Assembly: GCA_947653235.1 (NCBI GenBank)
Contig: CANTGH010000001.1
Span: forward strand, 247,191-311,190
Direction of reading: 5' to 3'
Source of the DNA: an uncultured Clostridium sp.
Lineage (GTDB): Bacteria; Bacillota; Clostridia; TANB77; CAG-508
DNA: 64,000 bases
The first letter of the stretch is position 1, and every line of letters starts with the position of its first letter. Shown here piece by piece: positions 1,416 through 44,235 of the stretch. Both the position numbers and the translations under genes were made by a program. The notes under the pieces were generated by a model. The model worked only from the letters and a program-made list of their open reading frames with translations, was not told the DNA's origin and searched no databases.

Positions 1416-1480
1416 TTTTTTTTACTTTTATGAAATTTTTATTTTTCGTTTCAAAAATCCTATTTTTATTAAAAATAACA

Positions 1481-1524
1481 AAAAAAGACCGAGCTTAATA
1501 AAAGTTCGGTCTTTTCTTTATTTT
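1481..1524. terminator. bidirectional rho-independent terminator downstream of the M23 peptidase gene
   Basis: Hairpin AGACCGAG-loop-TCGGTCT flanked by A-run and T-run. A closely similar hairpin recurs at 31495-31537. Confidence 0.55.
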
Positions 1525-1579
1525 AACATATTTACGTAACTTTGTCAATAATCTGCTAGTAATTTTTATAACCTATTTT

Positions 1580-3694: not shown

Positions 3695-3852
3695 GATTTT
3701 TGGCAAAAAAACCTTTGCAAAATGCAAAGGTTAACATTTCGATTTTAAAAATCATCAGCCAAAGCATTGCTTTGTCGGTATTAGCACCTTAAAAATTCAG
3801 GTTGCTGTGGAGTCATAAAGCCGATTCTCTCGTCCACTCTTGATAACATATT
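3695..3852 (-). promoter_or_regulatory. SAM-I (S-box) riboswitch with expression-platform terminator in the metK leader
   Basis: The minus-strand RNA reads TTATCAAGAGTGGACGAGAGAATCGGC...CCACAGCAACC...AAGGTGCTAATACCGACAAAG, which contains the S-box hallmarks. It is followed by the hairpin AACCTTTGCAttttGCAAAGGTT plus a T-run, immediately 5' of metK. Confidence 0.8.
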
Positions 3853-11776: not shown

Positions 11777-11845
11777 ATTTTTGTCCTCCTTAATTTTATT
11801 GGTAAAATCTTTTAGATGAAATCATATATATTACTATATATAATT

Positions 11846-11875
11846 ATTATACCATATTTTACATAAAATTGTCAA
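11846..11875 (-). promoter_or_regulatory. sigma-A consensus promoter (TTGACA-N18-TATAAT) for the GC-rich gene
   Basis: On the minus strand: TTGACAattttatgtaaaatatggTATAAT, followed by GGAGG and the ATG. Confidence 0.45.
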
Positions 11876-26117: not shown

Positions 26118-26687
26118 CTACTCAAAATCCTCCAAAACTGAACTTAATTTTCCCTCGCCATACACCATAATTCCTTCTTCTAATTTCCTTATATCTTCTT
26201 CTGGTAAATAATCTCTTGCTATATCTGTTTTTTGGTATTCATTTAATTCGCCCAGTGTTCCCATTTGAAAGACCTTTACGATGTCCTCTGCCAATTTTAT
26301 AACAAAATGTTGATTGCAATAACCATTAATTTCTTTTGAAAGCACTAATTCGTTTTCCGAAAACTTGTCTACTTCCCAATCCTTATAATAATCTTCTACT
26401 TCTTGCTCTGTTAAATTAATCAATTCTTTCGGAAGTTCTACTTCTTCATAATCAAAATGACTACATTCATCATAATATTTTTTTAGTGCAAAATTGGTAT
26501 TTGGCAATACTTTTTCCTCTTTAACCGCCGTTGTTACGGTACTTTCATTTTCATACATTTCTTCTACTTGATGTGCTGTTTGCGCTTCCTGCGCTCTATA
26601 GGTTGTATTCAATAATCCTACAATTCCCCAAATCACTCCTACAATTCCTATTATTAATATACTAATATATACATAATCTTTCCTCAT
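26118..26687 (-). CDS. hypothetical membrane-anchored protein
   Basis: The likely start is MRKDYVYISIL, preceded by GGTGA. It has an N-terminal TM helix and an acidic soluble domain. Confidence 0.45.
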   Translation of the reverse strand: MRKDYVYISILIIGIVGVIWGIVGLLNTTYRAQEAQTAHQVEEMYENESTVTTAVKEEKVLPNTNFALKKYYDECSHFDYEEVELPKELINLTEQEVEDYYKDWEVDKFSENELVLSKEINGYCNQHFVIKLAEDIVKVFQMGTLGELNEYQKTDIARDYLPEEDIRKLEEGIMVYGEGKLSSVLEDFE

Positions 26688-26799
26688 ACGCTTCACCTTT
26701 CGTAAATTAGTATGAACGATTTTGGAAAAATTATACAAAGATAGGAAATAAATATCCTATCTTTTTTCATAAAAATGATGAGAGAAGAAACAATTGTTC

Positions 26800-27036
26800 C
26801 TCCCTCATTTTCTTTTTCAACACTTTATTGTCACCTTACGGTGACCGTGCGTTTGCTCGCATCATAAGTTGCTCCTTCCCTTGCAGTCATGCTCATCTGA
26901 CCCGCCACACTCGACAGCTACTTTACTTGGCATCTGCAGTTTCCAAAGTTTTTACTTTTTTGAAATCGGAACGGAGAATCCCGAGCATTAAATTTTCTTC
27001 TATTCATCGGCTACCTCCCGCACACTGCGCACCGGC
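26800..27036 (-). other. GC-rich noncoding island. It may be a pseudogene remnant or a structured RNA
   Basis: About 50% GC against ~25% flanking. On the minus strand it reads as a single frame broken by six stops (MRDSPMKTVTLDHFLENWAV*AGAQCAGGSR*IEENLMLGILRSDFKKVKTLETADAK*...). It ends in a GGTCACCgtaaGGTGAC hairpin. Confidence 0.3.
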
Positions 27037-27099
27037 TTAGACTGCCCAATTTTCTAAGAAATGATCTAATGTTACTGTCTTCATCGGACTATCTCTCAT
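27037..27099 (-). CDS. 20-codon ORF (MRDSPMKTVTLDHFLENWAV) with strong RBS at the head of the GC-rich island
   Basis: AAAGGAGG lies 7 nt before the ATG. It may be the N-terminus of a decayed gene rather than a functional peptide. Confidence 0.2.
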   Translation of the reverse strand: MRDSPMKTVTLDHFLENWAV

Positions 27100-27137
27100 A
27101 CAATAGCCTCCTTTCAGAAAAATTTTTTAATTTCAAC

Positions 27138-27151
27138 CAAGAATATTCTTG
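27138..27151. promoter_or_regulatory. perfect 14-bp palindrome CAAGAATATTCTTG at the transcription start region (candidate operator)
   Basis: It lies 10-23 nt downstream of the -10 of the 27162-27190 promoter. Confidence 0.35.
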
Positions 27152-27161
27152 ATATAATTAT

Positions 27162-27190
27162 ATTTTAGCATATTTACATAATTTTGTCAA
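27162..27190 (-). promoter_or_regulatory. sigma-A promoter TTGACA-N17-TAAAAT driving the sORF/GC-rich unit
   Basis: On the minus strand: TTGACAaaattatgtaaatatgcTAAAAT. Confidence 0.45.
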
Positions 27191-27221
27191 TACTTTTTTA
27201 AAAATTTTTTCACTTTTTTCA

Positions 27222-27278
27222 CTTAAAAAAAACGCCCACATACGAAGTCCTTTCTTCGCACCTAGGCGTTTTTTTTAT
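27222..27278. terminator. bidirectional terminator downstream of the SSB-like gene
   Basis: AACGCC-long loop-GGCGTT with an A-run before and a T-run after. Confidence 0.5.
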
Positions 27279-27304
27279 ATATTAAACTAAATATATACTA
27301 TATT

Positions 27305-27985
27305 CTATGAAACAACCTCTTCGGATGTTTCGTTTGTTTGTGAATCTTGTTCTTCTTTTTCCACAATTTCTAAACTTGCGACAGAAACCTCGTAAGCTAC
27401 TCTTTCTTCAACACTTCCATCTTCATGTTTTTTCTCATAAATTCTGCTTTGTACTCTACCAATTAAGCGTACTTCAGTTCCTACTTCCATGTTTTCACAA
27501 AATCTAGCGTTGCGTCCCCAAGCAATACATGGTATGTAATCGGATTTATTATAAGCACGATTAACCGCTAACAAAATATCCGCAATTTCCCTGCCAAATG
27601 GTGTTTGTCTGTAAATTGGCTTTTTGCAAATATAGCCTAATAGTTTTACTTCATTTGATACTTCTTCTTTGCTTTCTTCTGGATTGACTTGTATAATTTC
27701 TTTCGCAAAAACCGTAAGAATTAAGCGGTTTCTCTCGTTTTCATAATTGTTGTATGAACGAAATTGACCTTCTACTTTTAGGGTATTACCTAATTCTAAA
27801 TTAATTGTTGTTAGTAATCTTTCCGATACAGTAATTGGTATAATATCTACTGTTGAGCTTAATCTTACTACTTCTAAATTAAATAAATAAAATTTCTCTC
27901 CATAGATTTCATGGCTGTATCTTTTCTCACTCGCAACTTTTCCAACCAACACTAAGTGGTTGTTTTCTAAATAATTTGTATTCAA
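27305..27985 (-). CDS. SSB-family protein with two OB folds (TTG start)
   Basis: 226 aa. The second OB fold resembles SsbA (LAVNR, IPCIAWGRNA, GRVQSRIYE). The start TTG is 8 nt after AAGGAGG. Confidence 0.55.
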   Translation of the reverse strand: MNTNYLENNHLVLVGKVASEKRYSHEIYGEKFYLFNLEVVRLSSTVDIIPITVSERLLTTINLELGNTLKVEGQFRSYNNYENERNRLILTVFAKEIIQVNPEESKEEVSNEVKLLGYICKKPIYRQTPFGREIADILLAVNRAYNKSDYIPCIAWGRNARFCENMEVGTEVRLIGRVQSRIYEKKHEDGSVEERVAYEVSVASLEIVEKEEQDSQTNETSEEVVS

Positions 27986-27989
27986 TTTA

Positions 27990-28204
27990 AATTCCTCCTT
28001 AAATTCATCTAGTGTATTTCATATATGCTAATTTTTCATCTTATTACTTCTATTATAACACATTTTTTTTGGTTTGTCTACATAAAATTTCATTTTTTTG
28101 TAATTTTTTACATTTTTTTAATATTTTTTTGTGTTTTTTCTTTGATTTTTTTAGGTTTTTAGTGTTTTTTGTTATGTTCATTCATTATTTGTTCTTTTTT
28201 TATG
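27990..28204. repeat. low-complexity T-tract region (phased T6-8 runs) upstream of the SSB-like gene
   Basis: About 215 bp of tttttttg-type runs. It contains an extended -10 promoter (TAGACA-N17-TGtTATAAT) on the minus strand and is likely curved or UP-element DNA. Confidence 0.45.
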
Positions 28205-29557
28205 TTAGTTTCTAACCAATTGTTTGAATAAATTCCCTCTTTCTTCAAAATTTTTGAAATATTCATAGCTGGAAGCTGCAGGTGATAACACACAAATCGT
28301 ATTTTTTTTCGTAACTTTTTTAGCAATTTTTACTGCTTGTTCTAAATTCTCTACTAAATATACTTTTTTACTTACTTGATTTTTTAAGGTATGATAAATT
28401 ATCTCTCCAGTTTTAGGAAGACAAATGATATGTTCTACCATTGAATTTTGAAGAAATTGAATCAACTCTTGCAAATCAACTCCTCTATCTTTCCCACCTA
28501 CAATTAATGTATTAACTTTTTCAAGTGCCTTTATCGTATAAATGGTTGATTGTGGTATGGTTGCTATAGAATCGTTATAATATTGGACTGAATCAATTTC
28601 ATCCACATATTCCATGCGATGCTGTAAGGTCTCAAAAGTTTCAATTGTTTTAAGGGCTATATCTAGTTCTAAATTCATTTTATCACATACAGCTAGAACA
28701 AACATGATGTTTTGAATGTTGTGTATTCCTTTTAATTTTAGTTTTGTATTTAAATTCATCATTTCTTTCTTGTTACAATATATGTGATTGTTTTGAATAT
28801 ATACGCAATTTTGAGTATCTGTACCCTCTTTTAATGTAATAGCATAATCTGTTGGCTTAAAGATATAGTTTTTCATATTTTGGTTATCATAGTTATAAAT
28901 TAGAATATCTGCTTGTTTTTGATACTTAGTAATGTTATATTTGGCATCTGCATATTGCTCAAATGAATTATAATGATCCAAATGTTCTTCATATAAATTG
29001 AGCCAAATTGCAATATTAGGCGATTGTTTTACATATTGTAAGCTATGAGAAGACAATTCTAGAACAACAATACTATTAGTTTTCAGATTTTCTATACTTT
29101 CCAATATAGGCTCTCCAATATTTCCTAGTAAAAAAGTATCTCTGCCTTGATCTTTTAACACTTGATACATCAAACTACTGGTCGTACTTTTGCCTTTGGT
29201 ACCAGTAATTCCAATCGTGAAACAGTCTACAAATTGTAAAAATAGTTGTAATTGATTGGTTACTTTTTCTTGAAAATTCGTTATGTCTTTATTTTTAAAA
29301 GATAGCCCTGGTGTTTTTAAGATAATATCATATTCTTCTAATCCATTTAAGTATTGCTCGCCCATATTTATTTCTAAGTCAATATCTTCTAAAAATTCTG
29401 GATACTTTTGTAATAAATTGGTTGCTTTATCAGCAATAAACAACTTTTTTTGGGGAAAATTTTTTCGTAAAAAGTCATAAGTTGACTTTCCTTCTATACC
29501 AACACCTAAAATTAAAATTTTTTTATCTTTTAAATATTGTAATAATTTTTTTAACAT
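28205..29557 (-). CDS. MurD-like Mur ligase (UDP-N-acetylmuramoyl-L-alanine--glutamate ligase family)
   Basis: 450 aa with a MurD-type N-terminal Rossmann motif (KILILGVGIEGKS) and the Mur ligase P-loop GITGTKGKSTT. It is not in a dcw cluster. Confidence 0.7.
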   Translation of the reverse strand: MLKKLLQYLKDKKILILGVGIEGKSTYDFLRKNFPQKKLFIADKATNLLQKYPEFLEDIDLEINMGEQYLNGLEEYDIILKTPGLSFKNKDITNFQEKVTNQLQLFLQFVDCFTIGITGTKGKSTTSSLMYQVLKDQGRDTFLLGNIGEPILESIENLKTNSIVVLELSSHSLQYVKQSPNIAIWLNLYEEHLDHYNSFEQYADAKYNITKYQKQADILIYNYDNQNMKNYIFKPTDYAITLKEGTDTQNCVYIQNNHIYCNKKEMMNLNTKLKLKGIHNIQNIMFVLAVCDKMNLELDIALKTIETFETLQHRMEYVDEIDSVQYYNDSIATIPQSTIYTIKALEKVNTLIVGGKDRGVDLQELIQFLQNSMVEHIICLPKTGEIIYHTLKNQVSKKVYLVENLEQAVKIAKKVTKKNTICVLSPAASSYEYFKNFEERGNLFKQLVRN

Positions 29558-30900
29558 TCAAATAAACTCCTTTTCAAGATTTGCTCAAATTCTTCTGGTA
29601 AATTATTGTTTGGATTATATTCTTTTAACATATCCTCTTCTAATAGTTCAAAATGTTCTTGATAATAGTTTAACAAAAATGGTAATTGAAATTTGGTATT
29701 TTGAATGGTTTTTGAAATTGCAAATCGGATTTCTCGGTAAGTCCCAACACATTCAAATGGCTTGTTTTGACTATAGCCACAAAGTTCAATAAAGGTTTGT
29801 AACAATGATTCTTTTTCGAATAAATCTTCGCCGAAAATTGTAATCAACTTTTCACGATATAAAAATGGACTTAAAATAATAAATGCAAATAAACATTTCG
29901 GACAATCACAACACCATTTCCATTGTTTCTCTTTGCTTCCTACATTACAACTTTTAAAAACAGGATGATAGGCTTCTAACTTTGAAAATAATTTTGCAAT
30001 TTGTATTTCACTAATAGGACGAAGTATACTAAAATATTCTGGTCCATTGGGTGTTATATAGTTTGTTACATAATTTCTAAAATCATTTTCAAATTCTACT
30101 GTTTTGGAATATTGATGATTGATATTTTGCCCTTTAATGTTACTTTCATTCGCACTATCTTCATTAGATAATACAATATATTTTTTATCAAAAATAATGG
30201 CAACAAAATAAGTGATGAAAGCAACCAGTGCGGAAAAAGGCGTGTGACCATTTAAAAATCCCTGTTGATTTAGTTCAATTAAATTGGTATCGATTTTTCG
30301 TTCTACCTCGAATATCTCATCTTCTTTTAATTCTGCAATTTCAGCACATTTTCGTGAAACATCTTCTAGATTGATACGAAATCCAAATCGTTTTTGAGAA
30401 CTCTGTTTCAACAATTCCAAGGTAACATTCGAGTCTTTTCCACCACCAATAGGAATGATACAATCTTGTAAATTAGTTTGACATTCCTCTACTTCCCATC
30501 TCTTACCTTCTGAAAATATTTGAACAAAATCTTCCTGCGAAACTTGGATTTTGTTTTTATAACGAAATTCACCTAAACCAAAATAAATGAGCTTTTTAAA
30601 CCATTTTATTTGTTCTTCTTTTAGTTTTCCACATTTTATCCAAAAATATTGGCTACAGGTTGCTTTAAAATAACTAATTGCTTCTATAATTCCAATATGA
30701 AAAGCAACATTTTGAGCTATATTGCTATGCAAATGATTAATTTTAAAATTCTTTTTACGAATTTTTAAGATGGGATTAAATTGCTTTAATCCTTCAATTT
30801 CGAAACAATATTTTAAATAAATATTAGCTTCATCTTCTTCTATTTGATAGTCTTTATAAATAAATGATTTATATTTTTCTTTTAATTCTTCATATTTCAT
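29551..30900 (-). CDS. PP-loop ATP pyrophosphatase family protein, translationally coupled to the MurD-like gene (MurL-like candidate)
   Basis: 449 aa with the PP-loop IPIGGGKDS after a ~150-aa N-terminal domain and a C-terminal Cys cluster WKWCCDCPKC. Its start overlaps the preceding gene's stop (ATGnnTGA). Confidence 0.5.
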   Translation of the reverse strand: MKYEELKEKYKSFIYKDYQIEEDEANIYLKYCFEIEGLKQFNPILKIRKKNFKINHLHSNIAQNVAFHIGIIEAISYFKATCSQYFWIKCGKLKEEQIKWFKKLIYFGLGEFRYKNKIQVSQEDFVQIFSEGKRWEVEECQTNLQDCIIPIGGGKDSNVTLELLKQSSQKRFGFRINLEDVSRKCAEIAELKEDEIFEVERKIDTNLIELNQQGFLNGHTPFSALVAFITYFVAIIFDKKYIVLSNEDSANESNIKGQNINHQYSKTVEFENDFRNYVTNYITPNGPEYFSILRPISEIQIAKLFSKLEAYHPVFKSCNVGSKEKQWKWCCDCPKCLFAFIILSPFLYREKLITIFGEDLFEKESLLQTFIELCGYSQNKPFECVGTYREIRFAISKTIQNTKFQLPFLLNYYQEHFELLEEDMLKEYNPNNNLPEEFEQILKRSLFEC

Positions 30901-44151: not shown

Positions 44152-44235
44152 CTATTCAATGCACGAAAAATCAAATCTTTAAACAAATCTATTGACAAAC
44201 TTACATAAATATGATATAATAAAAGGTTAGCCTTT

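Follow-up and report, generated by a model that had tools for sequence, protein, structure and literature searches.

Several small RNAs of Firmicutes have a dual function and encode a small peptide, among them S. aureus RNAIII/hld, B. subtilis SR1/SR1P and C. perfringens VR-RNA. The locus described here, from an uncultured gut Clostridia bacterium near Candidatus Scatovivens, resembles these systems in its predicted layout, which is that of a stand-alone transcript of a few hundred nucleotides with its own sigma-A promoter and intrinsic terminator, a short ORF preceded by a Shine-Dalgarno (SD) sequence near the 5' end, and a long untranslated 3' part. It differs from them in that neither its sequence nor an Rfam search links it to any of these RNAs, and in being confined to a single species and evolving fast. 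Two further kinds of described locus bear comparison. Type I toxin-antitoxin loci are likewise small, promoter-bearing, strain-variable and intergenic, with a short ORF and a structured 5' end, but the first ORF here (ORF1) is hydrophilic, no convergent antisense promoter was found in the unit, and the frames tried have no Pfam match. Riboswitch leaders share with the unit the form of a GC-rich stretch that lies upstream of a gene and ends in a terminator, whereas the unit has no covariance-model match, is absent from orthologous loci and is followed by the downstream gene's own promoter.

The unit spans about 480 bp (~27227-26754, minus strand) of the window, that is, of the whole 64-kb stretch of DNA that was analysed, and lies between an SSB-like and a BofC-like gene. 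We put at about an even chance the reading that this lineage-specific ~480-bp insertion forms an autonomous small transcription unit, predicted to be an orphan small-ORF mRNA or an sRNA gene of the dual-function type.

Results

Read in the direction of its predicted transcription, the locus comprises the following features, from the terminator of the upstream gene to the start of the downstream gene.

27224..27277, minus strand: intrinsic terminator of the SSB-like gene, with 24-nt inverted-repeat arms and a T-run; conserved in relatives up to ~27228; left insertion boundary
27191..27227, minus strand: start of the inserted DNA, an A/T-rich run ahead of the promoter in which GTGAAAAAA occurs twice
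27162..27190, minus strand: sigma-A-type promoter TTGACA-17-TAAAAT, 11/12 matches, with a TATG (-16) motif, that is, TG upstream of the -10 box
27136..27153, minus strand: element holding the 14-bp perfect palindrome CAAGAATATTCTTG (27138-27151), just after the predicted start
27037..27115, minus strand: SD GAAAGGAGG (27115-27107) and ORF1 (27099-27037), 20 codons, encoding MRDSPMKTVTLDHFLENWAV
26847..27036, minus strand: purine-rich non-coding core, 41-50% GC
27007-26918, minus strand: ORF2, 29 codons, with an SD-like GGGAGG upstream; not conserved
26876..26937, minus strand: 62-nt hairpin-forming segment, a self-contained stem-loop in the minimum-free-energy fold
26830..26865, minus strand: ORF3 (26865-26836), MMRANARSP, 9 codons, SD-preceded; overlaps the GNRA-loop hairpin
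26846-26830, minus strand: GNRA hairpin GGTCACC-GTAA-GGTGAC (RNA GGUCACC-GUAA-GGUGAC), read from the sequence
26770..26808, minus strand: intrinsic terminator and predicted transcript end (12-bp stem 26808-26778 and T-run), from a consensus scan
26737..26764, minus strand: second hairpin, at the right insertion junction; the 3' arm consists of native sequence, also present in loci L002 and L004
26687..26736, minus strand: promoter belonging to the BofC-like gene itself and lying outside the unit; sigma-G/F type, GTATA-17-CATACTA (26736-26708), present in conserved form in every close relative and followed by RBS and ATG

The comparison with related loci indicates that the unit is a lineage-specific insertion, recently acquired, within one gut Clostridia species. 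Specifically, blastn found it absent from 89 of 89 related loci, which comprise 80 genome loci found by scanning a single genome for each species (SSB-like gene 69-93% identical) and nine additional Logan/ENA contigs of the closest relatives (protein identity 72-76%), all without the unit. The order of SSB-like and then BofC-like gene is mostly retained in the nine closest species, and the SSB-like terminator adjoins the BofC-like promoter directly in L001, L003, L006, L007, L009, L086, L089, L091 and L092; in the first five of these, 0-30 bp separate the SSB terminator from a TATG(T/C)ATAATTTTCCAAAAATTATCCATACTA block, after which the BofC-like gene follows. Homology with the unit-free relatives stops at ~27228, the left boundary of the insertion. 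The window's BofC-like protein is encoded in identical form by 14 contigs, and in the five that were retrieved and compared, all from different samples, the unit is unchanged in 5/5, with one mismatch in one contig; it is therefore not an assembly artefact.

As to how the unit arrived, no convincing repeat was found that would represent a target-site duplication, and the apparent overlap of left and right junctions in relatives consists of A/T-rich low-complexity sequence. A test for a MITE or an IS-derived element likewise found no convincing terminal inverted or direct repeats at the unit ends, and no second copy of the unit occurs in the 64-kb window or in the 102 loci compared. At a neighbouring position, an extra GC-richer stretch of ~80 bp lies between the SSB-like stop codon and its terminator in L003:4680-4760, L086:2275-2355 and L089:2262-2342, and is not present in the window.

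An earlier note on this DNA, made from the letters alone, had described a self-contained module between two unrelated genes, and the unit does carry its own promoter, SD with ORF, and terminator in the right order and orientation. Two features are absent from that note, namely the intrinsic terminator and the status of the unit as an insertion relative to its relatives. The promoter that the note read as TTGACA-N17-TAAAAT was recovered by a consensus scan, with 11/12 matches, and its predicted transcription start lies near 27155. Promoters with at least 11/12 matches number 26 in the window where 3.4 are expected (about eight times chance), and the unit promoter is thus probably real. The A/T-rich stretch upstream contains a tandem 9-mer at 27205-27224 and could act as an UP element.

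The window holds four strong promoters that share the hexamers and much of the spacer (TTGACAAAnTTAYRTAAATATGnTAWAAT), at 1476-1550 (minus strand), 11845-11875 (minus strand), 44192-44222 (plus strand) and, for the unit, 27162-27190 (minus strand). The promoter at 1548 equals that of the unit at 29/32 positions and is directly followed by a terminator-like hairpin (1510-1476). The common spacer may reflect a shared spacer-binding regulator or a duplicated promoter module. A resemblance of the unit's promoter spacer, TTATGTAAA, to a dif/XerD arm was dropped, as an XerC arm is missing and other promoters have the motif too.

The palindrome after the start had been proposed as a repressor operator. 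It is present and perfect, but the proposed role is not supported: with 5 perfect 14-nt palindromes in the window against 8.8 expected, the palindrome alone is not unusual, and the second allele described below breaks the DNA palindrome yet keeps the RNA stem. A search for matching palindromic sites elsewhere returned a sole other site within two mismatches, which equals the chance expectation. In RNA, the palindrome would form a 5'-terminal hairpin, AUCAAG/CUUGGU, at about +3 to +20.

Downstream of this hairpin, the 20-codon ORF with a strong ribosome-binding site was found as the note had it, its perfect SD lying 7 nt before the ATG at 27099. The encoded peptide is hydrophilic, with seven charged or His residues and no hydrophobic stretch or membrane segment. 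It thereby lacks the small hydrophobic, membrane-active character of a type I toxin, and the suggestion of a small toxin is on that account not supported. The plus strand of the unit gave no promoter-like site in a consensus scan, which would overlook weak promoters. Beyond ORF1, its frame meets the stops TAA, TGA, TAA, TGA, TGA and TAA; these are the six stops that had been taken to interrupt a single frame, but all three reading frames are broken in the core, so that the choice of one is arbitrary. Two apparent internal regularities were also rejected. An R(D)SP motif common to ORF1, ORF2 and ORF3 is taken as coincidence because ORF2 is frameshifted in the second allele, and an internal 77-nt repeat suggested by CCGATGAA motifs is not significant (p=0.14).

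The core itself stands out by composition. GC content is 0.41-0.50 across 27100-26800, compared with 0.20-0.30 in the AT-rich DNA directly alongside, 0.30-0.40 in the adjacent genes and ~30% in the genome, which confirms the reported GC-rich stretch as ~210 nt at 41-50% GC against 20-30% in the immediate flanks. Three-base periodicity is absent from the core (chi-square p=0.78; p=0.60 and 0.81 for its halves), in a test for which 78% of 207-nt pieces of real window genes give p<0.05. Its folding energy is about that of shuffled sequence (z between -0.7 and +0.3, dinucleotide shuffles), and it is the terminal hairpins that account for the z of -1.4 to -1.7 obtained with the whole transcript. 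These results lend support neither to a recent coding origin nor to a tightly folded RNA. At the 3' side, the hairpin that the note had regarded as closing the unit (26846-26830) is present but does not mark its end, which is the predicted intrinsic terminator at 26808-26778, followed by the hairpin at 26764-26737. The unit terminator is T-rich on both sides and may terminate transcription in both directions.

A second, diverged allele of the unit separates its parts further. Loci L095 and L096 belong to the same species and encode a BofC-like protein from the same 90% cluster. The two alleles differ at 16/394 positions of the unit (~4%), with an additional 62-nt indel and a 1-nt indel in an A-run, whereas the SSB-like coding sequence differs at 2/681 positions (0.3%) and the BofC-like coding sequence at 5/570 (0.9%), mostly at third codon positions; third codon positions of the flanking coding sequences are about 1.4% different. 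By this measure, the primary sequence of the unit shows no purifying selection. The 62 nt of core missing from L095/L096 (26937-26876) have short inverted ends, GCAGATGC ... GCATGACTGC, on the minus strand, and the indel may stem from a deletion mediated by a hairpin or from a newly gained, very small hairpin element.

Elsewhere in the unit, L095/L096 keep the -35 box, the spacing and the TATG motif, and the -10 box changes from TAAAAT to TAATAT. The substitution 27147 A>T in L095 brings the DNA palindrome down to 12/14 and falls in the loop of the shared RNA stem AUCAAG/CUUGGU. The second allele preserves ORF1 in full, its one change there (27058 C>T) being synonymous, and ORF3 is kept in L095, with one synonymous change (26851 C>T) that also turns a G-C into a G-U pair in a small hairpin, UGCG/CGCA; ORF2 in L095 has two non-synonymous changes and a frameshift. 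The terminator stem keeps 12/12 pairs across four changes, one of them compensatory (G-C to A-U) and three of them G-U/G-C switches. What is retained and what is lost speaks against both an operator and a structured core under conservation, and can be reconciled with an RNA whose important parts are the 5' hairpin, the small ORF and the terminator, although the two alleles compared are too few to test selection on a 20-codon ORF.

The same comparison bears on whether the unit might be a new, undescribed class of structured non-coding RNA, such as a regulatory RNA, a ribozyme or a protein-binding RNA. Such an RNA would account for a GC-rich island in a ~30% GC genome, for several local hairpins, one of them with a GNRA tetraloop, and for the finding that every substitution in a predicted helix keeps its pair (a count biased by the use of a consensus fold fitted to both alleles). 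However, the core folds like its shuffles (z -0.7 to +0.3), the other allele dispenses with a 62-nt block of it, and there is neither an Rfam match at E up to 10 nor a homolog in any collection searched, which makes a new class quite improbable.

These searches were extensive. The Rfam covariance-model scan of both strands that the note had proposed was run with cmscan, once at gathering thresholds on the full window and once with E up to 10 on 26600-27350, and it returned no family match for the latter region on either strand, with noise below 22 bits. The weak resemblance to the B12 box of a cobalamin riboswitch came to nothing, as RF00174 has no match on either strand at E up to 10. At gathering thresholds, Rfam does recognize two other elements of the window, a SAM-I riboswitch at 3749-3849 (minus strand, 74 bits) and a ribosomal protein L10 leader at 57839-58019 (minus strand, 49 bits). 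The unit contains no tRNA or tmRNA gene. Against phages and plasmids, blastn gave matches to the promoter only, or none, and against E. coli genomes none; degenerate-pattern scans of JGI metagenome contigs and exact and degenerate-pattern scans of viral contigs found no relative. At the protein level, word-indexed searches found no homolog of an antisense 70-aa ORF or of ORF1 and ORF2, Pfam searches at E up to 10 with nine stop-free unit segments from five/six frames gave nothing significant, and tblastn of the unit frames found no homolog in phages or in any of the compared loci. For possible sRNA targets, the best duplex with translation-initiation regions within the window lies in the shuffled range. 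With no homolog outside one species, conservation cannot show function.

The proposal that the unit is a decayed gene thus met with no protein homolog in any frame searched and with a core devoid of codon periodicity; an old or very diverged gene remnant could nevertheless underlie it. One special form of such a remnant was suggested by minus-strand frame 1 (27088-26834), in which 85 codons are interrupted only by three TAG and which contains CxxC...CxC, as might be expected of a fragment of a stop-codon-recoded (TAG-reassigned) phage gene. This origin is scarcely credible: a frame of this kind is likely to arise by chance among six frames and three stop types (at an estimated ~7% per frame and stop type), 16/51 host ORFs longer than 150 codons have TAG as their regular stop, codon periodicity is absent, and the second allele frameshifts frame 1. 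The 85-aa read-through product, moreover, had 0 matches in an exhaustive phmmer search of 1.84 billion proteins, and no homolog in phages.

The genes on either side define the setting of the unit. The upstream gene (27985-27305) encodes a two-OB-fold SSB-family protein and has its own terminator at 27277-27224. The downstream gene, with its ATG at 26687-26685, encodes a BofC-like membrane protein of 189 aa; the BofC C-terminal domain (BofC_C) is matched by 9/14 family members, with a best E-value of 1.7e-7, and by the window's protein with an E-value of only 0.058. In B. subtilis, bofC is sigma-G dependent. The GTATA-17-CATACTA promoter in front of the BofC-like gene fits the forespore sigma-G consensus (GHATR-17/18-CATXHTA), and a promoter of this sigma-G/F type (GTATA/GCATA-17-CATACTA) with a very short 5' UTR stands at orthologous positions in L001-L009 and L086-L094. 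A conserved forespore-type promoter fits a sporulation role of this unannotated BofC-like family.

This arrangement decides against a leader function. Because the BofC-like gene has its own conserved sigma-G-type promoter downstream of the unit terminator, the unit is not a conserved leader of that gene. The idea that it acts as a cis-regulatory leader of the BofC-like membrane protein, whether riboswitch or attenuator, draws on its position upstream of the gene, on the same strand, and on the terminator at its end. All relatives, however, have the BofC-like gene without the unit, the gene's sigma-G-type promoter follows two hairpins or terminators, and no Rfam riboswitch, cobalamin included, matches either strand. 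The leader or riboswitch that the note had offered for the downstream membrane protein therefore had to be given up, with no Rfam match, with relatives that carry the gene alone and with a terminator and a separate promoter in between, and we regard it as very unlikely.

Further upstream, at 28205-30900 (minus strand), a MurD-like ligase of 450 aa overlaps by 7 nt a 449-aa protein with MurL_N and MurL_epimerase_C domains (precomputed Pfam). The pair looks like a MurD2-MurL type, in which L-Glu would be added and then epimerised. The interval between the MurD-like and SSB-like genes holds a 42-aa ORF that public pipelines annotate as a gene (28053-28181, minus strand); within this ORF lies a near-consensus promoter, TAGACA-17-TATAAT, at 28080-28052.

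Other species also carry inserts after the SSB-like gene. The same SSB-to-BofC gap holds, in L004:4790-5125, a promoter, an SD, a 62-aa membrane ORF and a terminator, and, in L002:4762-4915, a 160-bp remnant. In L057:4715-5075, a cassette with a membrane ORF of ~73 aa follows the SSB-like gene, with a different downstream gene, and in L071 a tRNA does so. The unrelated small cassettes in L004 and L057 indicate that these gaps accept small autonomous genes, and the gaps after the SSB-like gene look like an insertion hotspot for small genes. The unit resembles the L004 and L057 cassettes in its position after the SSB-like terminator, in the series of a TTGACA-17-TAtAAT promoter, strong SD and terminator, and in a GC content above that of the host; it differs in that they encode intact hydrophobic small proteins, whereas the unit has a 20-codon hydrophilic ORF and ~250 nt of non-coding sequence. 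We rejected homology between the unit and the inserts of L004, L002 or L057, as only the promoter consensus aligns, and a 3' 'AAGTGTT(A/G)AA' similarity to L002 is not significant (p=0.29).

These inserts lend weight to a possible, though doubtful, alternative, in which the unit is the decaying remnant of a horizontally acquired small-gene cassette of the L004/L057 kind, whose promoter and first 20 codons survive by chance and whose remainder is non-functional, perhaps still transcribed. Cassettes do appear to decay here, the same gap holding an intact one in L004 and a 160-bp remnant in L002; the unit diverges faster than neutral proxies and has a 62-nt indel and a frameshifting indel in its core, the core shows no structural signal, and its higher GC suggests a foreign origin. 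Against decay speak the lack of a protein homolog for any frame, of residual codon periodicity even in half-segments, and of any resemblance at the DNA level to the inserts of L004, L002 or L057 outside the promoter consensus, as well as the fact that both alleles keep ORF1, ORF3, the promoter architecture and the terminator pairing. A broader and unlikely conjecture would make the unit an example of undescribed, horizontally moving micro-cassettes that carry a promoter with a micropeptide or sRNA and colonise terminator-to-promoter gaps in gut Clostridia. The SSB-like gap would then be a hotspot with at least three independent captures of unrelated cassettes (window, L004 and L057), and exchange of cassettes between lineages would explain why the unit has diverged more than its flanks.

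Discussion

The available data are compatible with a model in which the unit landed between the SSB-like terminator and the sigma-G-type promoter of the BofC-like gene and works as a small transcription unit of its own. The sigma-A promoter would fire at ~27155 and give rise to an RNA of ~380 nt, which would open with the 5' hairpin formed by the palindrome, probably shielding its 5' end. The RNA would carry a well-placed SD and a translatable 20-codon ORF, after which ~250 nt of purine-rich sequence with little structure and additional SD-like motifs would follow. A strong intrinsic terminator would then end the RNA and thereby insulate the downstream sporulation gene. The unit would be fast-evolving and perhaps heading to decay. 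Transcription, translation of ORF1 and a biological role are what we infer from the DNA sequence.

Of the readings that the earlier note had offered, a small RNA or small-ORF locus is the best that remains, and a structured, riboswitch-like leader has fallen away. By prediction, the unit has what is asked of an independent sRNA gene, namely its own promoter, a Rho-independent terminator and an intergenic position. At most, it belongs with the known species-specific small RNA or small-ORF genes, and its sequence itself matches nothing known. The unit has no bearing on any long-standing question, and it illustrates that an intergenic island rich in GC and equipped with a promoter need not be a riboswitch or a structured RNA.

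The two alleles set apart the parts that are kept (promoter architecture, 20-codon ORF and terminator pairing) from those that are dispensable (62 nt of core, ORF2 and the palindrome). If transcribed, the unit would represent a small RNA or micropeptide gene that is very young, limited to one species and observed shortly after its acquisition, and as such it would offer a small case study of how uncultured gut Clostridia, with their compact genomes, gain orphan small genes and lose them again by decay.
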